A stretch of DNA of 10,922 nt from IMG/VR virus record IMGVR_UViG_2617270960_000002; one strand, 5' to 3'. The notes below the pieces were generated by a model that was not told where the DNA came from, ran no database searches, and saw only the letters and a list, made by a program, of their open reading frames with translations. The first letter of the stretch is position 1, and each line of letters begins with the position of its first letter. The position numbers were made by a program, and so were the translations under genes. Source of the stretch: a virus (lineage: Duplodnaviria > Heunggongvirae > Uroviricota > Caudoviricetes). Shown in pieces: positions 2-10,922 of the stretch.

Positions 2-406
2 ATCGGGGAGGAAGAAGCCCGTGCCTTTTCCCGCGAGGTTGAAGCGGCATGGAAAGAGTTTGCCGAGGACGACTGTTGCTGCATTGACGTTGAGCGAAAA
101 CGCACGTTCACCATGATGATTCGGGAAGGTGTGGCCATGCATGCCTTTAACGGTGAACTGTTCGTTCAGGCCACCTGGGATACCAGCCCGTCGCGACTGT
201 TCCGGACACAGTTCCGGATGGTCAGTCCGAAGCGTATCAGCAACCCGAACAATACCGGCGACAGCCGGAACTGCCGTGCCGGTGTGCAGATTAATGACAG
301 CGGTGCGGCGCTGGGATATTACGTCAGCGAGGACGGCTATCCTGGCTGGATGCCGCAGAAATGGACATGGATACCCCGTGAATTACCCGGCGGGCGCGCG
401 CGTTGA
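2..406 (+). CDS. 3' end of an upstream phage head-module gene (5' end outside the window); product not identified, possibly an FI-like DNA-packaging or head-completion protein
   Basis: Frame 2 is open from the first bases of the window to TGA at 404-406. The translation is protein-like (…FNGELFVQATWDTSPSRLFRTQF…GYPGWMPQKWTWIPRELP) but does not match lambda FI or FII as I recall them. Its position directly upstream of the FII remnant and Z-U-V suggests a head-module gene. Confidence 0.5.
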   Translation: MGEEEARAFSREVEAAWKEFAEDDCCCIDVERKRTFTMMIREGVAMHAFNGELFVQATWDTSPSRLFRTQFRMVSPKRISNPNNTGDSRNCRAGVQINDSGAALGYYVSEDGYPGWMPQKWTWIPRELPGGRAR

Positions 407-584
407 AGGCTCCAGCCCGTCCCTGTTTGTCCGGACTGATGAGGTGCGGCAGCTGCGGCGCGGCGACACGCTGACCATCGGTGAGGAAAACTTCTGGATA
501 GACCGGATTTCGCCGGATGATGGTGGAAGCTGTCATCTCTGGCTTGGGCGGGGCGTACCGCCTGCCGTTAACCGTCGCCGCTGA
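378..584 (+). CDS. FII: Head-tail joining protein FII homolog, C-terminal ~62 residues only; start codon uncertain (candidate GTG 378; the longest ORF begins at ATG 129)
   Basis: Frame-3 translation from ~393 to 584 (…VEGSSPSLFVRTDEVRQLRRGDTLTIGEENFWIDRISPDDGGSCHLWLGRGVPPAVNRRR*) matches the C-terminal half of lambda gpFII nearly residue for residue. Upstream of ~390 this frame reads as R/S/C-rich non-protein-like sequence and overlaps the frame-2 gene, so the N-terminal half of FII is absent. Stop TGA at 582-584. Confidence 0.55.
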   Translation: MNYPAGARVEGSSPSLFVRTDEVRQLRRGDTLTIGEENFWIDRISPDDGGSCHLWLGRGVPPAVNRRR

Positions 585-592
585 AAGGGGGA
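585..592 (+). promoter_or_regulatory. Shine-Dalgarno-like ribosome-binding site for Z (AAGGGGGA)
   Basis: Purine-rich AAGGGGGA lies 3-5 nt upstream of the Z ATG at 596. Confidence 0.5.
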
Positions 593-595
593 TGT

Positions 596-1174
596 ATGGC
601 CATAAAAGGTCTTGAGCAGGCCGTTGAAAACCTCAGCCGTATCAGCAAAACGGCGGTGCCCGGTGCCGCCGCAATGGCCATTAACCGCGTTGCTTCATCC
701 GCGATATCGCAGTCTGCGTCACAGGTTGCCCGTGAGACAAAGGTACGCCGGAAACTGGTAAAGGAAAGGGCCAGGCTGAAAAGGGCCACGGTCAAAAATC
801 CGCAGGCCAGAATCAAAGTTAACCGGGGGGATTTGCCCGTAATCAAGCTGGGTAATGCGCGGGTTGTCCTGTCCCGCCGCAGGCGTCGTAAAAAGGGGCA
901 GCGTTCATCCCTGAAAGGTGGCGGCAGCGTGCTTGTGGTGGGAAACCGTCGTATTCCCGGCGCGTTTATTCAGCAACTGAAAAATGGCCGCTGGCATGTC
1001 ATGCAGCGTGTGGCCGGGAAAAACCGTTACCCCATTGATGTGGTGAAAATCCCGATGGCGGTGCCGCTGACCACGGCGTTTAAACAGAATATTGAACGGA
1101 TACGGCGTGAACGTCTTCCGAAAGAGCTGGGCTATGCGCTGCAGCATCAACTGAGAATGGTAATAAAGCGATGA
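596..1174 (+). CDS. Z: Tail completion protein Z (lambda gpZ family), 192 aa
   Basis: ORF 596..1174 translates to MAIKGLEQAVENLSRISKTAVPGAAAMAINRVASSAISQ…[11 protein letters not shown], essentially the lambda gpZ sequence as I recall it. Its stop overlaps the U start (ATGA at 1171-1174). Confidence 0.95.
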   Translation: MAIKGLEQAVENLSRISKTAVPGAAAMAINRVASSAISQSASQVARETKVRRKLVKERARLKRATVKNPQARIKVNRGDLPVIKLGNARVVLSRRRRRKKGQRSSLKGGGSVLVVGNRRIPGAFIQQLKNGRWHVMQRVAGKNRYPIDVVKIPMAVPLTTAFKQNIERIRRERLPKELGYALQHQLRMVIKR

Positions 1175-1566
1175 AACATACTGAACTCCGTGCAGCCGTA
1201 CTGGATGCACTGGAGAAGCATGACACCGGGGCGACGCTTTTTGATGGTCGCCCCGCTGTTTTTGATGAGGCGGATTTTCCGGCAGTTGCCGTTTATCTCA
1301 CCGGCGCTGAATACACGGGCGAAGAGCTGGACAGCGATACCTGGCAGGCGGAGCTGCATATTGAAGTTTTCCTGCCTGCTCAGGTGCCGGATTCAGAGCT
1401 GGATGCGTGGATGGAGTCCCGGATTTATCCGGTGATGAGCGATGTCCCGGCACTGTCAGATTTGATCACCAGTATGGTGGCCAGTGGCTATGACTACCGG
1501 CGCGACGATGATGCGGGCCTGTGGAGTTCAGCCGATCTGACTTATGTCATTACCTATGAAATGTGA
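1171..1566 (+). CDS. U: Tail terminator protein U (lambda gpU family), 131 aa
   Basis: ORF 1171..1566 translates to [71 protein letters not shown]…LTYVITYEM, matching lambda gpU. It is coupled to Z by an ATGA overlap. Confidence 0.95.
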
Positions 1567-1573
1567 GGACGAT

Positions 1574-2314
1574 ATGCCTGTACCAAATCCAGTAATGCCG
1601 GTGAAAGGGGCCGGGACCACACTGTGGGTTTATAAGGGGAACGGTGACCCTTATGCGAACCCGCTTTCAGACGTTGACTGGTCGCGTCTGGCTAAAGTTA
1701 AAGACCTGACGCCCGGCGAACTGACCGCTGAGTCCTATGACGACAGCTATCTCGATGATGAAGATGCGGACTGGACTGCGACCGGGCAGGGGCAGAAATC
1801 TGCCGGAGATACCAGCTTCACGCTGGCGTGGATGCCCGGAGAGCAGGGGCAGCAGGCGCTGCTGGCGTGGTTTAATGAAGGGGATACCCGTGCCTATAAA
1901 ATCCGCTTCCCGAACGGCACGGTCGATGTGTTCCGCGGCTGGGTCAGCAGTATCGGTAAGGCGGTGACGGCGAAGGAAGTGATCACCCGCACGGTGAAAG
2001 TCACCAACGTGGGACGTCCGTCGATGGCAGAAGATCGCAGCACGGTAACAGCGGCAACCGGCATGACCGTGACGCCTGCCAGCACTTCGGTGGTGAAAGG
2101 GCAGAGCACCACGCTGACCGTGGCATTCCAGCCGGAAGGCGCAACCGACAAGAGCTTCCGTGCGGTGTCTGCGGATAAAACAAAAGCCACCGTGTCGGTC
2201 AGTGGTATGACCATCACCGTGAAAGGTGTTGCTGCAGGCAAGGTCAACATTCCGGTTGTATCCGGTAATGGTGAACTTGCTGTGGTTGCAGAAATCACCG
2301 TCACCGCCAGTTAA
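1574..2314 (+). CDS. V: Major tail tube protein V (lambda gpV family), 246 aa, with a C-terminal Ig-like domain
   Basis: The true start is the internal ATG at 1574 ([22 protein letters not shown]…), preceded by GAGGA at 1565-1569. The listed ORF start at 1544 lies inside U and adds a non-homologous [10 protein letters not shown]. The sequence matches lambda gpV through the C-terminal …[17 protein letters not shown]. Stop TAA at 2312-2314. Confidence 0.95.
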
Positions 2315-2329
2315 TCCGGAGAGTCAGCG

Positions 2330-2752
2330 ATGTTCCTGAAAACCGAATCATTTGAATATAACGGTGTGAGCGTCACGCTTTCTGAACTGTCAGCCCTGCA
2401 GCGAATTGAGCATCTCGCCCTGCTGAAACGACAGGCAGAACAGGCGGGATCCAGTCTCAATCGACAGGTGAGCGTGGAAGATCTCGTCAGAACCGGTGCT
2501 TTTCTGGTGGCGATGTCCCTGTGGCATAGCCATCCGCAGAAGACAAAGATGCCGTCCATGAATGAAGCCGTTAAACAAATTGAGCAGGAAGTGCTTACCA
2601 CCTGGCCCACAGAGGCAATTGCTCAGGCTGAAAATGTGGTAATGCGTCTGTCCGGTATGTCTGAGTTTGTTGTGAATGATGCACCTGAACAGGCAGATGA
2701 CGCCGGGCCAGCAGAGCCTGTTTCTGCGGGAAAGTGTTCGACGGTGAGCTGA
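2330..2752 (+). CDS. G: Tail assembly chaperone G (lambda gpG family), 140 aa
   Basis: ORF 2330..2752 translates to MFLKTESFEYNGVSVTLSELSALQRIEHLALLKRQAEQ…PAEPVSAGKCSTVS, matching lambda gpG. GGAGAG (2318-2323) is upstream of the ATG. The slippery heptamer sits near the 3' end. Confidence 0.95.
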   Translation: MFLKTESFEYNGVSVTLSELSALQRIEHLALLKRQAEQAGSSLNRQVSVEDLVRTGAFLVAMSLWHSHPQKTKMPSMNEAVKQIEQEVLTTWPTEAIAQAENVVMRLSGMSEFVVNDAPEQADDAGPAEPVSAGKCSTVS

Positions 2753-3168
2753 GTTTTGCCCTGAAACTGGCGCGTGAGATGGGGCGACCCGACTGGCGCG
2801 CCATGCTTGCCGGGATGTCATCCACGGAGTATGCCGACTGGCACCGCTTTTACAGTACCCATTATTTTCATGATGTTCTGCTGGATATGCACTTTTCCGG
2901 GCTGACGTACACCGTACTCAGCCTGTTTTTCAGCGATCCGGATATGCATCCGCTGGATTTCAGTCTGCTGAACCGGCGCGAGGCTGACGAAGAGCCTGAA
3001 GATGATGTGCTGATGCAGAAAGCGGCAGGGCTTGCCGGAGGCGTCCGCTTTGGCCCGGACGGGAATGAAGTTATCCCCGCTTCCCCGGATGTGGCGGACA
3101 TGACGGAGGATGACGTAATGCTGATGACAGTATCAGAAGGGATCGCAGGAGGAGTCAGGTATGGCTGA
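2330..3168 (+). CDS. T: Tail assembly chaperone G-T fusion made by a -1 frameshift at 2728-2734; the T-specific segment is 2734..3168
   Basis: The -1 frame downstream of the slippery site reads FDGELSFALKLAREMGRPDWRAMLAGMSSTEYADWHRFYSTHYFHDVLLDM…SEGIAGGVRYG*, matching the lambda gpT portion of gpGT. There is no independent RBS or ATG for T. TGA at 3166-3168 overlaps the H start at 3161. Confidence 0.85.
2728..2734 (+). other. Programmed -1 ribosomal frameshift slippery heptamer G_GGA_AAG (G to G-T)
   Basis: GGGAAAG at 2728-2734, with GGA and AAG as zero-frame codons of G. The -1 frame is open from 2734 to 3168 and encodes lambda gpT-like sequence. Lambda G-T uses the same heptamer. Confidence 0.85.
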
Positions 3169-5722
3169 ACCGGTAGGCGATCTGGTCGTTGATTTGAGTC
3201 TGGATGCGGCCAGATTTGACGAGCAGATGGCCAGAGTCAGGCGTCATTTTTCCGGTACGGAAAGTGATGCGAAAAAAACAGCGGCAGTCGTTGAACAGTC
3301 AATGAACCGGCAGGCGCTGGCTGCACAGAAAGCGGGGATTTCCGTCGGACAGTATAAAGCCGCCATGCGTATGCTGCCTGCACAGTTCACCGACGTGGCC
3401 ACGCAGCTTGCAGGCGGGCAAAGTCCGTGGCTGATCCTGCTGCAACAGGGTGGTCAGGTTAAGGACTCCTTCGGCGGGATGATCCCCATGTTCAGGGGGC
3501 TTGCCGGTGCGATCACCCTGCCGATGGTCGGGGCCACCTCGCTGGCGGTGGCGACCGGTGCGCTGGCGTATGCCTGGTATCAGGGCAACTCAACCCTGTC
3601 CGATTTCAACAAAACGCTGGTCCTTTCCGGCAATCAGTCGGGTCTGACGGCAGATCGCATGCTGGTCCTGTCCAGAGCCGGGCAGGCGGCAGGGCTGACG
3701 TTTAACCAGACCAGCGAGTCACTCAGCGCACTGGTTAAGGCGGGAGTAAGCGGTGAGGCTCAGATTGCGTCCATCAGCCAGAGTGTGGCGCGTTTCTCCT
3801 CTGCATCCGGCGTGGAGGTGGACAAGGTCGCTGAAGCCTTCGGGAAGCTGACCACAGACCCGACGTCAGGGCTGACAGCGATGGCGCGTCAGTTCCATAA
3901 CGTGACGGCGGAGCAGATTGCGCATGTTGCTCAGTTGCAGCGTTCCGGCGATGAAGCCGGGGCATTGCAGGCGGCGAACGAGGCCGCGACGAAAGGGTTT
4001 GATGACCAGACCCGCCGCCTGAAAGAGAACATGGGTACGCTGGAGACCTGGGCAGACAGGACAGCGCGGGCATTCAAATCCATGTGGGATGCGGTGCTGG
4101 ATATTGGTCGTCCTGATACCGCGCAGGAGATGCTGATTAAGGCAGAGGCTGCGTTTAAGAAAGCGGACGACATCTGGAGTCTGCGCAAGGATGATTATTT
4201 TGTTAACGATGAAGCGCGGGCGCGTTACTGGGATGATCGTGAAAAGGCCCGTCTTGCGCTTGAAGCCGCGAGAAAGAAGGCTGAACAGCAGAGTCAACAG
4301 GACACAAATGCGCAGCAGCAGAGCGATACTGAAGCGTCACGGCTGAAATATACCGAAGAGGCGCAGAAGGCTTACGAACGCCTGCAGACGCCGCTGGAGA
4401 AATATACCGCCCGTCAGGAAGAACTGAATAAGGCACTGAAAGACGGGAAAATCCTGCAGGCAGATTACAACACGCTGATGGCGGCGGCGAAAAAGGATTA
4501 TGAAGCGACGCTGAAAAAGCCGAAACAGTCCGGCGTGAAGGTGTCTGCGGGCGATCGTCAGGAAGACAGTGCTCATGCTGCCCTGCTGACGCTTCAGGCT
4601 GAACTCCGGACGCTGGAGAGGCATGCCGGAGCGAATGAGAAAATCAGCCAGCAGCGCCGGGATTTGTGGAAGGCGGAGAGTCAGTTCGCGGTACTGGAGG
4701 AGGCGGCGCAACGTCGCCAGCTGTCTGCACAGGAGAAATCCCTGCTGGCGCATAAAGATGAGACGCTGGAGTACAAACGCCAGCTGGCTGCACTTGGCGA
4801 CAAGGTTACGTATCAGGAGCGCCTGAACGCGCTGGCGCAGCAGGCGGATAAATTCGCACAGCAGCAACGGGCAAAACGGGCCGCCATTGATGCGAAAAAC
4901 CGGGGGCTGACTGACCGGCAGGCAGAACGGGAAGCCACGGAACAGCGCCTGAAGGAACAGTATGGCGATAATCCGCTGGCGCTGAATAACGTCATGTCAG
5001 AGCAGAAAAAGACCTGGGCGGCTGAAGACCAGCTTCGCGGGAGCTGGATGGCAGGCCTGAAGTCCGGCTGGAGTGAGTGGGAAGAGAGCGCCACGGACAG
5101 TATGTCGCAGGTTAAAAGTGCTGCCACGCAGACCTTTGATGGTATTGCACAGAATATGGCGGCGATGCTGACCGGCAGTGAGCAGAACTGGCGCAGCTTC
5201 ACCCGTTCCGTGCTGTCCATGATGACAGAAATTCTGCTTAAGCAGGCAATGGTGGGGATTGTCGGGAGTATCGGCAGCGCCATTGGCGGTGCTGCCAGTG
5301 GTGGAGCATCAGCGTCAGGCGGTACAGCCATTCAGGCAGCTGCGGCGAAATTCCATTTTGCGACCGGAGGATTTACGGGAACCGGCGGCAAATATGAGCC
5401 AGCGGGGATTGTTCACCGTGGTGAATTTGTCTTCACGAAGGAGGCAACCAGCCGGATTGGTGTCGGCAACCTGTACCGCCTGATGCGGGGCTATGCGGAA
5501 GGTGGTTATGTGGGCGGTGCCGGAAGTCCGGCGCAGATGCGGCGGGCTGAAGGCATTAATTTTAATCAGAACAATCACGTGGTGATTCAGAACGACGGTA
5601 CGAATGGTCTGCCAGGTCCACAGATGATGAAGGCAGTGTATGACATGGCCCGCAAGGGTGCCCGTGATGAAATTCAGGCACAGATGCGCGATGGTGGTCT
5701 GTTCTCCGGAGGTGGACGATGA
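3161..5722 (+). CDS. H: Tail tape measure protein H (lambda gpH family), 853 aa
   Basis: ORF 3161..5722 translates to MAEPVGDLVVDLSLDAARFDEQMARVRRHFSGTESDAKKTAAVVEQS…, co-linear with and the same length as lambda gpH. It has the hydrophobic segment and Gly-rich C-terminal region typical of tape measure proteins. Its stop overlaps the M start. Confidence 0.95.
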   Translation: MAEPVGDLVVDLSLDAARFDEQMARVRRHFSGTESDAKKTAAVVEQSMNRQALAAQKAGISVGQYKAAMRMLPAQFTDVATQLAGGQSPWLILLQQGGQVKDSFGGMIPMFRGLAGAITLPMVGATSLAVATGALAYAWYQGNSTLSDFNKTLVLSGNQSGLTADRMLVLSRAGQAAGLTFNQTSESLSALVKAGVSGEAQIASISQSVARFSSASGVEVDKVAEAFGKLTTDPTSGLTAMARQFHNVTAEQIAHVAQLQRSGDEAGALQAANEAATKGFDDQTRRLKENMGTLETWADRTARAFKSMWDAVLDIGRPDTAQEMLIKAEAAFKKADDIWSLRKDDYFVNDEARARYWDDREKARLALEAARKKAEQQSQQDTNAQQQSDTEASRLKYTEEAQKAYERLQTPLEKYTARQEELNKALKDGKILQADYNTLMAAAKKDYEATLKKPKQSGVKVSAGDRQEDSAHAALLTLQAELRTLERHAGANEKISQQRRDLWKAESQFAVLEEAAQRRQLSAQEKSLLAHKDETLEYKRQLAALGDKVTYQERLNALAQQADKFAQQQRAKRAAIDAKNRGLTDRQAEREATEQRLKEQYGDNPLALNNVMSEQKKTWAAEDQLRGSWMAGLKSGWSEWEESATDSMSQVKSAATQTFDGIAQNMAAMLTGSEQNWRSFTRSVLSMMTEILLKQAMVGIVGSIGSAIGGAASGGASASGGTAIQAAAAKFHFATGGFTGTGGKYEPAGIVHRGEFVFTKEATSRIGVGNLYRLMRGYAEGGYVGGAGSPAQMRRAEGINFNQNNHVVIQNDGTNGLPGPQMMKAVYDMARKGARDEIQAQMRDGGLFSGGGR

Positions 5723-6048
5723 AAACCTTCCGCTGGAAAGTGAAACCCGGTATGGATGTGGCTTCGGCCCCTTCCGTAAGAAAGGTGCGCTTTGGTGATG
5801 GCTATTCCCAGCGAGCGCCTGCCGGGCTGAATGCCGACCTGAAAACGTACAGCGTGACGCTTTCTGTTCCCCGTTGGGAGGCCACGGCGCTGGAGTCGTT
5901 TCTGGCTGAGCACGGGGGCTGGAAAGCCTTTCTGTGGACGCCGCCTTATGAGTGGCGGCAGATAAAGGTGACCTGCGCAAAATGGTCGTCGCGGGTCAGT
6001 ATGCTGCGTGTTGAGTTCAGCGCAGAGTTTGAACAGGTGGTGAACTGA
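5719..6048 (+). CDS. M: Tail tip assembly protein M (lambda gpM family), 109 aa
   Basis: ORF 5719..6048 translates to MKTFRWKVKPGMDVASAPSVRKVRFGDGYSQRAPAGLNADLKTYSVTLSVPRWEAT…EFSAEFEQVVN, matching lambda gpM. ATGA overlap with H; its stop overlaps the L ATG at 6048. Confidence 0.95.
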   Translation: MKTFRWKVKPGMDVASAPSVRKVRFGDGYSQRAPAGLNADLKTYSVTLSVPRWEATALESFLAEHGGWKAFLWTPPYEWRQIKVTCAKWSSRVSMLRVEFSAEFEQVVN

Positions 6049-6746
6049 TGCAGGATATCCGGCAGGAAACACTGAATGAATGCACCCGTGCGGAGCAGTC
6101 GGCCAGCGTGGTGCTCTGGGAAATCGACCTGACAGAGGTCGGTGGAGAACGTTATTTTTTCTGTAATGAGCAGAACGAAAAAGGTGAGCCGGTCACCTGG
6201 CAGGGGCGACAGTATCAGCCGTATCCCATTCAGGGGAGTGGTTTTGAACTGAATGGCAAAGGCACCAGTACGCGCCCCACGCTGACGGTTTCTAACCTGT
6301 ACGGTATGGTCACCGGGATGGCGGAAGATCTGCAGAGTCTGGTCGGCGGAACGGTGGTCCGGCGTAAGGTTTACGCCCGTTTTCTGGATGCGGTGAACTT
6401 CGTCAACGGAAACAGCGACGCCGATCCGGAGCAGGAGGTGATCAGCCGCTGGCGCATCGAGCAGTGCAGCGAACTGAGCGCGGTCAGTGTCTCTTTTGTA
6501 CTGTCCACACCGACTGAAACGGATGGCTCTGTTTTTCCGGGGCGTATCATGCTGGCCAACACCTGCACCTGGACCTATCGCGGCGATGAGTGCGGTTATA
6601 GCGGTCCGGCGGTCGCGGATGAATATGACCAGCCGACGTCCGATATCACGAAGGATAAATGCAGCAAATGCCTGAGCGGCTGTAAGTTTCGCAATAACGT
6701 CGGCAACTTTGGCGGCTTCCTTTCCATTAACAAACTTTCGCAGTAA
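6048..6746 (+). CDS. L: Tail tip protein L (lambda gpL family), 232 aa
   Basis: ORF 6048..6746 translates to MQDIRQETLNECTRAEQSASVVLWEIDLTEVGGERYFFCNEQNEKGEPVTWQGRQYQPY…, matching lambda gpL, including the C-terminal Cys cluster (CSKCLSGC). Confidence 0.95.
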   Translation: MQDIRQETLNECTRAEQSASVVLWEIDLTEVGGERYFFCNEQNEKGEPVTWQGRQYQPYPIQGSGFELNGKGTSTRPTLTVSNLYGMVTGMAEDLQSLVGGTVVRRKVYARFLDAVNFVNGNSDADPEQEVISRWRIEQCSELSAVSVSFVLSTPTETDGSVFPGRIMLANTCTWTYRGDECGYSGPAVADEYDQPTSDITKDKCSKCLSGCKFRNNVGNFGGFLSINKLSQ

Positions 6747-6751
6747 ATCCC

Positions 6752-7495
6752 ATGACACAGACAGAATCAGCGATTCTGGCGCACGCCCGGCGATGTGCGC
6801 CAGCGGAGTCGTGCGGCTTCGTGGTGAGAACGCCGGAGGAGGAAAGATATTTTCCCTGCGTGAATATCTCCGGTGAACCGGAGGATTATTTCCGGATGTC
6901 GCCGGAGGACTGGCTGCAGGCCAAAATGCAGGGTGAGATTGTGGCGCTGGTCCACAGCCACCCCGGTGGTCTGCCCTGGCTGAGTGAGGCCGACCGGCGG
7001 CTGCAGGTGCAGAGTGATTTGCCGTGGTGGCTGGTCTGCCGGGGGACGATTCATAAGTTCCGCTGTGTGCCGCATCTCACCGGGCGGCGCTTTGAGCACG
7101 GGGTGACGGACTGTTACACGCTGTTCCGGGATGCTTATCATCTGGCGGGGATTGAGATGCCGGATTTTCATCGCGAGGATGACTGGTGGCGTCACGGTCA
7201 GAATCTCTATCTGGATAATCTGGAGGCCACAGGGCTGTATCAGGTGCCGTTGTCAGCGGCACAGCCGGGCGATGTTCTGCTGTGCTGTTTTGGTTCATCG
7301 GTGCCGAATCACGCCGCCATTTACTGCGGCGACGGCGAGCTGCTGCACCATATTCCTGAACAACTGAGTAAACGAGAGAGGTATACCGACAAATGGCAGC
7401 GACGCACACACTCCCTCTGGCGTCACCGGGCATGGCACGCATCTGCCTTTACGGGGATTTGCAACGATTTGGCCGCCGCATCGACCTTCGTGTGA
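6752..7495 (+). CDS. K: Tail tip assembly protein K (lambda gpK family), 247 aa from ATG 6752; JAMM/MPN-like N-terminal region plus NlpC/P60-like C-terminal region. An internal ATG at 6896 would give the shorter 199-aa form.
   Basis: ORF 6752..7495 translates to MTQTESAILAHARRCAPAESCGFVV…ALVHSHPGG…GVTDCYTLF…NHAAIY…, matching lambda K. The HSHP motif (~6953-6964) and the Cys (7112-7114) and His (7310-7312) of an NlpC/P60-type dyad are present. The 3' end overlaps the I start by 103 nt in another frame. Confidence 0.9.
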   Translation: MTQTESAILAHARRCAPAESCGFVVRTPEEERYFPCVNISGEPEDYFRMSPEDWLQAKMQGEIVALVHSHPGGLPWLSEADRRLQVQSDLPWWLVCRGTIHKFRCVPHLTGRRFEHGVTDCYTLFRDAYHLAGIEMPDFHREDDWWRHGQNLYLDNLEATGLYQVPLSAAQPGDVLLCCFGSSVPNHAAIYCGDGELLHHIPEQLSKRERYTDKWQRRTHSLWRHRAWHASAFTGICNDLAAASTFV

Positions 7496-8064
7496 AAACG
7501 GGGGCTGAAGCCATCCGCGCACTGGCCACACAGCTCCCGGCGTTTCGTCAGAAACTGAGCGACGGCTGGTATCAGGTACGGATTGCCGGGCGGGACGTCA
7601 GCACGTCCGGGTTAACGGCGTAGTTACATGAGACTCTGCCTGACGGCGCTGTGATTCATATTGTTCCCAGAGTCGCCGGGGCCAAGTCAGGGGGCGTATT
7701 CCAGATTGTTCTGGGGGCTGCCGCCATTGCCGGATCATTCTTTACTGCCGGAGCCACTCTTGCAGCATGGGGGGCAGCCATTGGGGCCGGTGGTATGACC
7801 GGTATCCTGTTTTCTCTCGGTGCCAGTATGGTACTTGGTGGTGTGGCGCAGATGCTGGCACCGAAAGCCAGGACGCCCACGGCAGCAAGTACAGATAACG
7901 GCAAACAGAACACCTATTTCTCCTCACTGGATAACATGGTTGCCCAGGGCAATGTTCTGCCCGTTCTGTACGGTGAAATGCGCGTGGGGTCGCGGGTGGT
8001 CTCTCAGGAGATCAGCACGGCAGACGAAGGGGATGGTGGTCAGGTTGTGGTGATTGGTCGCTGA
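7393..8064 (+). pseudogene. I: Tail tip assembly protein I (lambda gpI family), interrupted by an in-frame amber codon (TAG 7621-7623) at codon 77. Full-length 223 aa would need amber suppression; otherwise a 76-aa N-terminal fragment, with possible re-initiation at GTG 7651.
   Basis: Frame 1 from ATG 7393 reads MAATHTLPLASPGMARICLYGDLQRFGRRIDLRVKTGAEAIRALATQLPAFRQKLSDGWYQVRIAGRDVSTSGLTA, then TAG, then continues in the same frame LHETLPDGAVIHIVPRVAGAKSGGVFQIVLGAAAIAG…GQVVVIGR* to 8064. Lambda gpI has Gln (CAG) at this position as I recall, and the total span of 672 nt equals lambda I. Confidence 0.8.
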
Positions 8065-8082
8065 TGCAAAACATTTTATGTG

Positions 8083-8110
8083 AAACCGCCTGCGGGCGGT
8101 TTTGTCGTTT
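8083..8110 (+). terminator. Candidate stem-loop followed by a T-rich tract in the I-J intergenic region (weak intrinsic-terminator-like or mRNA-structure element)
   Basis: AAACCGCC (8083-8090), loop TGCG, then GGCGGTTT (8095-8102) form an inverted repeat with a 5-bp GC core, followed by TGTCGTTT. The U-tract is interrupted, so a true terminator is doubtful. Confidence 0.3.
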
Positions 8111-8112
8111 AT

Positions 8113-8117
8113 GGAGC
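8113..8117 (+). promoter_or_regulatory. Shine-Dalgarno-like ribosome-binding site for J (GGAGC)
   Basis: GGAG at 8113-8116 lies 8 nt upstream of the J ATG at 8125. Confidence 0.5.
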
Positions 8118-8124
8118 GTGACGA

Positions 8125-10922
8125 ATGGGTAAAGGCAGCAGTAAGGGGCATACCCCGCGCGAAGCGAAGGACAACCTGAAGTCCACGCAGCTGCTGAGTG
8201 TGATCGATGTCATCAGCGAAGGGCCGATTGAAGGTCCGGTGGATGGATTAAAAAGCGTGCTGCTGAACAGTACGCCGGTGCTGGACAGTGAGGGGAATAC
8301 CAATATCTCCGGCGTCACGGTGGTGTTCCGGGCAGGTGAGCAGGAGCAGACGCCGCCGGAGGGCTTTGAATCCTCCGGTTCCGAGACGGTGCTGGGTACG
8401 GAAGTGAAATACGACACGCCGATTACCCGGACCATCACGTCTGCAAACATCGACCGTCTGCGCTTTACCTTCGGTGTGCAGGCACTGGTGGAAACCACCT
8501 CAAAGGGGGACCGGAATCCGTCGGAAGTCCGCCTGCTGGTTCAGATACAGCGTAACGGTGGCTGGGTGACGGAAAAAGACATCACCATTAAAGGCAAAAC
8601 CACCTCACAGTATCTGGCATCGGTGGTGGTGGGTAACCTGCCGCCGCGCCCGTTCAATATCCGGATGCGCAGGATGACGCCGGACAGCACCACAGATCAG
8701 CTGCAGAACAAAACGCTCTGGTCGTCATACACCGAAATCATCGATGTGAAACAGTGCTACCCGAACACGGCACTGGTCGGCGTACAGGTGGATTCGGAGC
8801 AGTTCGGCAGCCAGCAGGTGAGCCGTAATTATCATCTGCGCGGGCGTATTCTGCAGGTGCCGTCGAACTATAACCCGCAGACGCGGCAATACAGCGGTAT
8901 CTGGGACGGAACGTTTAAGCCAGCATACAGCAATAACATGGCCTGGTGTCTGTGGGATATGCTGACCCATCCACGCTACGGCATGGGGAAACGTCTTGGT
9001 GCGGCGGATGTGGACAAATGGGCGCTGTATGTCATCGGCCAGTACTGCGACCAGTCAGTGCCGGACGGCTTTGGCGGCACGGAGCCGCGCATCACCTGTA
9101 ATGCGTACCTGACCACACAACGTAAGGCGTGGGATGTGCTCAGTGATTTCTGCTCGGCGATGCGCTGTATGCCGGTATGGAACGGGCAGACGCTGACGTT
9201 CGTGCAGGACCGACCGTCGGATAAGGCGTGGACCTATAACCGCAGTAATGTGGTGATGCCGGATGATGGCGCGCCGTTCCGCTACAGCTTCAGCGCCCTG
9301 AAGGACCGCCATAATGCCGTTGAGGTGAACTGGATTGACCCGAATAACGGCTGGGAGACGGCGACAGAGCTTGTTGAAGATACGCAGGCCATTGCCCGTT
9401 ACGGTCGTAATGTCACGAAGATGGATGCCTTTGGCTGTACCAGTCGGGGGCAGGCACACCGCGCCGGGCTGTGGCTGATTAAAACGGAACTGCTGGAAAC
9501 GCAGACCGTGGACTTCAGCGTGGGTGCTGAAGGGCTTCGCCATGTACCGGGCGATGTCATTGAAATCTGCGATGATGACTATGCCGGTATCAGCATCGGC
9601 GGGCGCGTGCTGGCGGTGAACAGCCAGACCCGGACGCTGACGCTCGACCGTGAAATCACGCTGCTATCCTCCGGTACTACGCTGATAAGCCTGGTTGACG
9701 GAAGTGGCAATCCGGTCAGCGTGGAGGTCCAGTCCGTCACCGACGGCGTGAAGGTAAAAGTGAGCCGTGTTCCTGACGGCGTTGCAGAATACAGCGTGTG
9801 GGGGCTGAAGTTGCCGACGTTGCGCCAGCGCCTGTTCCGCTGTGTGAGTATCCGTGAGAACGATGACGGCACGTATGCCATCACCGCCGTGCAGCATGTA
9901 CCGGAAAAAGAAGCCATCGTGGATAACGGGGCGCACTTTGACGGCGACCAGAGCGGCACGGTGAATGGCGTTACGCCGCCAGCGGTGCAGCACCTGACCG
10001 CCGAAGTCACCGCAGACAGCGGGGAGTATCAGGTACTGGCCCGCTGGGACACGCCGAAGGTGGTGAAGGGCGTGAGCTTCCTGCTCCGTCTGACCGTAAC
10101 AGCGGATGACGGCAGTGAGCGGCTGGTCAGCACGGCCCGGACGACGGAAACCACATACCGCTTCAGGCAGCTGGCGCCAGGGAACTACAGGCTGACGGTC
10201 CGGGCGGTAAATGCGTGGGGACAGCAGGGCGATCCGGCGTTGGTATCGTTCCGGATTGCCGCCCCGGCAGCGCCGTCGCGGATTGAGCTGACGTCGGGCT
10301 ATTTTCAGATAACTGCCACGCCGCATCTTGCGGTTTATGATCCGACGGTACAGTTTGAGTTCTGGTTCTCGGAAAAGCGGATTGCGGATATCAGGCAGGT
10401 TGAAACCACAGCACGCTATCTTGGCACGGCGCTGTACTGGATAGCCGCCAGTATCAATATCAGGCCGGGCCATGATTATTATTTTTACGTTCGCAGTGTG
10501 AACACCGTTGGCAAATCGGCATTCGTGGAGGCTGTTGGTCAGCCGAGTGATGATGCATCCGGCTATCTGGATTTTTTCAAAGGCGAGATAGGGAAAACCC
10601 ATCTGGCTCAGGAGCTGTGGACGCAGATTGATAACGGTCAGCTTGCGCCTGACCTGGCTGAAATCAGGACGTCCATTACGGATGTCAGCAATGAAATCAC
10701 GCAGACCGTCAATAAGAAACTGGAAGACCAGAGTGCGGCAATTCAGCAGATACAGAAGGTTCAGGTTGATACAAATAATAACCTGAACAGCATGTGGGCT
10801 GTGAAGCTGCAGCAGATGCAGGACGGACGCCTTTATATCGCGGGTATTGGTGTCGGTATTGAGAACACCCCTGACGGCATGCAGAGTCAGGTGCTGCTGG
10901 CGGCGGACAGGATTGCGATGGT
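8125..10922 (+). CDS. J: Tail tip/central tail fibre protein J (lambda gpJ family), 3'-truncated by the window end (~932 of ~1100+ codons present)
   Basis: Frame 1 from ATG 8125 reads [63 protein letters not shown]…, near-identical to lambda gpJ over roughly the first 800 residues. The frame stays open to the last base of the window, and no competing sense-strand ORF is listed after 8064. Confidence 0.95.

Follow-up and report, generated by a model that had tools for sequence, protein, structure and literature searches.

Does the point at which a lambda-like gene J ceases to resemble that of lambda mark the acquisition of a new receptor specificity? The question is raised by the 3′ end of a 10,922-bp stretch of DNA (hereafter the window), which is the entire draft contig JNRP01000057.1 of assembly GCA_000704745.1. 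Its open reading frames follow the order of a lambda-type tail operon (FII'-Z-U-V-G-T-H-M-L-K-I-J), and positions 392-10621 are 95.8% identical to lambda DNA. Gene J lies at the end of this operon on the plus strand, after H-M-L-K-I, as in lambda; its frame opens with an ATG at 8125 and remains open through 10920, giving a 2798-nt 5′ part (8125-10922, 932 codons) that is truncated by the contig end. A preliminary description of this DNA proposed that J is near-identical to lambda gpJ until about residue 820, that its C-terminal region has been replaced from there on, and that this pattern points to a receptor other than LamB. Our results support a lambda-like J with a replaced segment, i.e. 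a recombinational mosaic, but not the interpretation of that segment as a replaced C terminus or a host-range module.

The identity of the gene is well defined. Its product carries, in the lambda order, the Pfam domains FNIII-A_GpJ, Phage-tail_3, Ig_J, Ig_J_second and Phage_Tail_Tip (five of five matched, with E values from 1e-14 to 1e-43) and is a lambda-type tip attachment protein J, the central tail fibre and baseplate hub. On global alignment with lambda gpJ (NC_001416 15505-18903), 799 of the first 820 residues are identical, which agrees with the near-identity first described. The lambda-like part of the gene, encoding the hub domains and two FNIII/Ig domains (8125-10532, plus strand), has 91-99% nucleotide identity to lambda per 150-nt block. 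The last lambda-like domain, the second Ig/FNIII domain (residues 716-818, 10270-10578; PF24489 Ig_J_second, E = 2.4e-39), ends at residue 818 in both proteins, and the conserved GYLDFFKG block (residues 813-820, 10561-10584), present in every shaft class considered below, forms the left edge of the variable cassette. Two other features were called in this conserved region: a hairpin followed by a T-run at 10557-10572, considered as a terminator, proved to be just the conserved GYLDFF codons, and a minus-strand ORF (9664-10602) overlying conserved J coding sequence is a probable by-product of G+C-rich coding DNA.

Beyond GYLDFFKG, the window has 111 residues where lambda has 83, with ~32% identity and a net gain of 28 residues. 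At the DNA level, identity to lambda is ~95% up to 10532 and ~75% over 10533-10617; positions 10618-10745 cannot be aligned, and 10745-10922 align at 57-68%. These steps place the breakpoint within ~50 nt of where it was first put, and a check for uniformly high identity to lambda over 10580-10922 instead revealed a collapse to ~32% from residue 821. The peptide quoted for this region in the preliminary description matches the J translation exactly, and its likeness to lambda is, as suggested there, at the level of motifs, with MWAVK...DG..Y.AGIG being retained. On the left side identity declines by degrees instead of breaking off at a sharp, recent joint, which makes the exchange an old one and its crossover point something that we infer.

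In lambda gpJ the shaft comprises residues 809-861 and is followed by a beta-prism and then by the receptor-binding domain (RBD) (PMC11101478). The diverged stretch maps to lambda residues 821-904, that is to the shaft and upper prism, with the lambda RBD lying at 1001-1132. In the window it consists of an alpha-helical shaft (residues 821-889, 10585-10791, plus strand), which spans 69 residues between FFKG and MWAVK compared with 41 in lambda, and of the top of the beta-prism, or central straight fibre (residues 890-932, 10792-10920), which is loosely lambda-like (MWAVK..DG..Y.AGIG..ADRIA; 57-68% nucleotide identity). Comparison by HMMER with the gpJ chains in the PDB assigns the extra material to a single block (residues 836-865, 10630-10719, net +28 residues), located between lambda residues 835 and 838 and flanked on both sides by matched lambda stretches. 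The Phage_Tail_Tip domain (PF09327) starts at residue 872 in window J versus 845 in lambda, i.e. 27 residues later, and residues 819-871 of window J are covered by no Pfam domain. The RBD itself (PF12421, Ig_GpJ_C), found at 1001-1132 in lambda, occupies 1029-1159 in the closest full-length relative; window J stops at 932, so that the receptor-binding end was rightly placed beyond the window.

An AF2 monomer model of window J residues 801-932 (mean pLDDT 69) places helices at 809-822 and 826-836, which a break at an NGQLAP motif separates from a long, continuous one at 841-891 (pLDDT 79-89); beta strands follow at 893-921. The extra block is predicted to fall inside the long helix. The Pfam layout and the AF2 model thus identify the diverged stretch as the shaft and the prism top, without a receptor-binding domain; the receptor-contacting Ig-like domain and its loops fall outside it. 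The model suggests that the second helix of the window shaft is ~28-30 residues longer than that of lambda and, if this helix is straight, the closed fibre would be ~4 nm longer. Hydrophobic residues at 840, 844, 847, 851, 854 and 858 have a heptad-like 4-3-4-3-4 spacing, which is confined to 840-858, with the whole segment fitting no single register and the AF2 helix being that of a monomer.

Three discrete lengths, 41, 69 and 142 residues, are found for the shaft between FFKG and MWAVK, with sequence conservation inside each class. The window has the 69-residue, phage 21-type allele, including its ...NNNLNS, and its shaft is identical to the commonest variant, which is present in 42 IMG/VR loci. 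We considered whether the classes differ by whole heptads, as would be the case for 69 - 41 = 28 (four heptads); however, 142 - 69 = 73 is not a heptad multiple and, there being no single register either, we claim no heptad rule. The third class, of 142 residues from GYLEIFRG to the prism (IMG/VR L102-L104, L112, L116, L130-L135 and L147), resembles the 69-residue class in its C-terminal half; the RBD attached to it is in some cases 78% identical to that of lambda and in others of a different type. At another locus, L143, the helical region is unrelated and longer still.

Full-length relatives reveal what follows the diverged stretch. The whole window is best matched (98.5%) by a prophage that E. 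coli 1297KP carries at its Qin (ydfJ) locus (J WP_488914624.1), which differs in retaining the head genes missing from the window and in having a complete J of 1159 residues; its J, like that of the Qin-locus prophage of ATCC 8739, has the same shaft as the window, and both prophages share the amber codon in gene I described below. The J protein of phage 21 (UMO75436.1, OL657228 15693-19175; 1160 residues) has the domain order and the 69-residue shaft of the window; it is almost identical to window J over residues 781-932, and 95.8% identical to the whole J fragment at the DNA level, with one shaft substitution (D853G) and scattered substitutions elsewhere in the comparison, which extends to residue 932. 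Compared with lambda, the J proteins of both the 1297KP prophage and phage 21 are four-part mosaics, in which lambda-like hub and FNIII domains (residues 1-820) are followed by a diverged shaft and upper prism (821 to ~931), a lower prism with 90-97% DNA identity to lambda (~944-994), and an RBD (~1004 to the end) with 45-48% protein identity to that of lambda and DNA identity of only 50-60%. J thus returns to 90-97% nucleotide identity with lambda ~10 residues past the end of the window. Since the lower prism is lambda-like again, the diverged stretch is an internal cassette and not the start of a C-terminal replacement, contrary to the reading of a conserved N-terminal and central J with a replaced C-terminal region; comparison of these sequences indicates that the RBD is a separate variable module that diverges separately from the shaft. 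Downstream, J of the 1297KP prophage is followed by lom, stf and tfa.

To what extent do shaft and RBD travel together? A homologue search with J residues 801-932 returned only short partial proteins, from which Pfam labels and allele diversity were gained, and IMG/VR loci were used instead: 80 loci with a near-identical FNIII region, which, being selected by similarity to the window FNIII region, are a biased sample and were considered together with reference phages. Their J tails were split into the shaft and upper prism, the lower prism, and the RBD, and each segment was clustered. The window-type shaft occurs with four RBD clusters, namely those of the 1297KP type (36), the 434 type (27), the phage 21 type (10) and the type of L023 (2), and the lambda-type shaft occurs with the RBD of lambda, of the phage 21 type (L080) and of the 434 type (L081); in this set, shaft allele does not covary with RBD type or receptor. 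The same follows from direct alignment of named phages, which together make up a two-by-two table of shaft and RBD: lambda has a short shaft with a lambda-type RBD, 434 a short shaft with a 434-type RBD, phage 21 a long shaft with a phage 21-type RBD, and Stx2a_WGPS6 a long shaft with a 434-type RBD. Lambda gpJ (NP_040600.1; PDB 8IYK, 8XCI and 8XCK), 97% identical to window J over residues 1-820, shares its hub/FNIII/shaft/prism architecture and operon position, and differs in its shorter shaft and in the ~32% identity of the shaft and upper prism. Phage 434 J (UMO75362.1) combines lambda's short shaft with an OmpC-type RBD, and Stx2a_WGPS6 J (YP_009909415.1) combines a window-type shaft with the 434-type RBD, both proteins being of the same J family as that of the window, so the two modules are separable; close prophage relatives carry other RBD types.

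In a second IMG/VR scan, seeded with the lambda RBD, 18 loci had an RBD matching that of lambda at 98% identity or more; the shaft is short in every one of them, and many are probably lambda itself. In three further loci (L102-L104) an RBD 78% identical to that of lambda is joined to a 142-residue shaft, and in L105-L111 the short shaft is joined to a further RBD type of 152 residues. The window-type shaft with lambda's own RBD was found neither among 75 full-length relatives nor among the 18 lambda-RBD loci, both of them biased samples; there may be some linkage or incompatibility between the two, but given the bias the missing combination is no proof of it. Among the partial proteins, reciprocal junctions were observed at GYLDFFKG, with QPSDDAS upstream of the block and the lambda-type KITES after it in one (P0053), and RASDDAE with the window-type EIGKT in another (P0013). 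Such reciprocal joints fit a crossover within the conserved 24-nt GYLDFFKG block. In these comparisons, shaft version and RBD version assort independently.

The reading that we favour, with considerable confidence, is that 10585-10922 is a common alternative allele of the stalk of the lambda-type central tail fibre, exchanged independently of the RBD. The stalk would consist of a trimeric alpha-helical shaft below the second FNIII domain and of the beta-prism top, with the 28 extra residues lengthening the second shaft helix. Its alleles would be exchanged among lambdoid phages and prophages by homologous recombination, with crossovers in the conserved flanks, i.e. the GYLDFFKG block to the left and the conserved lower prism to the right, and independently of the RBD ~100 residues further on. 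In lambda the three chains are held together by the shaft, which also clamps the FNIII-2 collar; upon binding of LamB it flips, residues 841-861 turning into beta strands atop the prism, while fibre length decreases from 29.7 to 13.2 nm and the hub is opened (PMC11101478). By analogy, the window shaft likely does the same job, with a conserved trigger role: it would clamp the FNIII collar shut until the RBD binds a porin, whereupon refolding of the shaft would pass the trigger up to the hub, the shaft itself having no part in the choice of receptor.

Shaft length might nevertheless be adaptive for host range in a receptor-independent manner, by setting how far the tip reaches through O-antigen or capsule or by setting a trigger threshold, the alleles being selected with host surface type. 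We regard this as unlikely, though it has some appeal: the length classes of 41, 69 and 142 residues are discrete and internally conserved, receptor binding in lambda is accompanied by refolding of the shaft and by a decrease in fibre length from 29.7 to 13.2 nm (PMC11101478), and both common alleles are frequent in E. coli. However, lambda and phage 21 both infect K-12 via LamB despite their different shafts, both common alleles coexist in single genomes (with a median of two places per genome), and the classes may simply reflect ancestry. The more specific proposal that the 41-, 69- and 142-residue shafts form a second, receptor-independent axis of tail-tip adaptation, hence shuffled against RBD alleles by recombination, is more speculative again; were it true, shaft length would set either the reach of the RBD through O-antigen or capsule or the energy and stroke of refolding on triggering.

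A stalk allele exchanged on its own is also to be preferred over a single host-range cassette that would extend from ~821 through the C terminus of J and specify a receptor other than LamB, a view that we consider improbable. The J C terminus is an established determinant of host range (PMC3509688), the RBDs of full-length relatives with the window shaft are only 39-48% identical to that of lambda, and none of the 75 carries the lambda RBD. Yet ~70 residues with 90-97% DNA identity to lambda separate the two divergent parts, the window shaft is found with at least four RBD types and the lambda shaft with at least three, and phage 21, which has the window shaft, natively uses LamB (PMC11336670). 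Phage 434, conversely, uses OmpC, a specificity to which lambda switches when given the 434 fibre (PMC3509688), and it has the lambda shaft allele. With the window shaft in a LamB user and the lambda shaft in an OmpC user, the divergence over 10585-10922 is no evidence against LamB, and the proposed link to another receptor does not follow from the sequence in the window. The last 249 residues of lambda J suffice for LamB binding (PMC3509688), a fragment that excludes the shaft. As for the missing RBD of window J, which cannot be recovered from a contig ending at residue 932, the count of none in 75 relatives makes it probably of another type than lambda's; by comparison with these relatives it is probably of the 1297KP, 434 or phage 21 type. 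The literature yielded nothing usable on the receptor of the 1297KP/PPompW-type RBD, nor on those of the PhiR, ev and Chlobot phages.

That the divergence is an artefact, i.e. an assembly chimera or poor sequence, can be dismissed with near certainty: the window is indeed a full 10,922-bp draft contig that stops inside J, and contig ends are error-prone, but complete genomes such as ATCC 8739 match its last 338 nt at 99.7% identity, 958 records do so at ≥99% and 3335 complete E. coli records at ≥95%, which rules out an assembly artefact, and the reading frame is open to the final codon. The contig stops at 10922, no more than 2 nt from the point at which the variable segment (shaft and upper prism) gives way to the highly conserved lower prism, and the break there was probably caused by several J copies per genome disrupting assembly (again with a median of two places per genome). 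When the 3′ end of J was sought via the exact tape-measure protein, the sole matching contig was the window itself.

The state of the element bears on what its J copy can do. Over positions 1-399 the window matches the portal gene of the 1297KP prophage (L002 8001-8399) at 100% identity, and 392-800 resume in the middle of FII (L002 12645 onward), so that portal sequence is fused directly to mid-FII, the two alignments sharing an 8 bp overlap at 392-399. This arrangement implies a ~4.2-kb deletion that would start within the portal gene, removing its 3′ part, run through protease/scaffold, D, E and FI, and take the 5′ half of FII as well, leaving a prophage without head genes. In gene I (7393-8064), which encodes the tail tip assembly protein, codon 77 (7621-7623) is an in-frame TAG in place of the CAG of lambda; the amber codon is shared with the 1297KP prophage, in which I is annotated as a pseudogene. 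With the head-gene deletion and the amber codon in I, the element is a defective prophage, whose J copy can thus be no more than a reservoir for recombination; lambdoid phages reportedly acquire DNA from such defective prophages.

Several smaller features of the window were noted. Positions 7879-7890 of gene I are reshuffled, encoding TAAS as opposed to RIQT in lambda. The K homologue (6752-7495) was called with 247 residues, JAB and NlpC/P60 domains and a start immediately behind L; in the RefSeq annotation of lambda, K has only 199 residues and a later start. In the 60-nt gap between I and J, a G+C-rich hairpin followed by T's (AAACCGCCTGCGGGCGGTTTTGTCGTTT; 8084-8107) lies at the position of an annotated terminator in the phage 21 record. 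This hairpin was absent from the output of a consensus promoter/terminator scan, which gave hits at chance level only over the window, and no RNA family was found in the window with Rfam.

The window stalk allele is an already known, common and long-sequenced polymorphism. Of 5426 complete E. coli genomes, 3596 contain its sequence (10585-10922), at 7090 places with a median of two places per genome, and 2649 contain the lambda allele, at 4055 places; deposited phage genomes with the window allele number at least 65, among them 21, cdtI, phi458, the Stx phages 1717 and WGPS6, and the PPompW phages. Given this prevalence, the segment is an ordinary, already-sequenced piece of a mosaic: a phage 21-type stalk, carried by two thirds of complete E. 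coli genomes, in a dead prophage. For annotation, the overall results imply that divergence from ~residue 820 of a lambda-like J should not be taken for a receptor switch, since receptor information resides only in the last 130-160 residues of J, in the Ig-like RBD. Structural biologists working on phages might take an interest in the discrete classes of shaft length, the shaft being the part of lambda gpJ whose refolding opens the tail.
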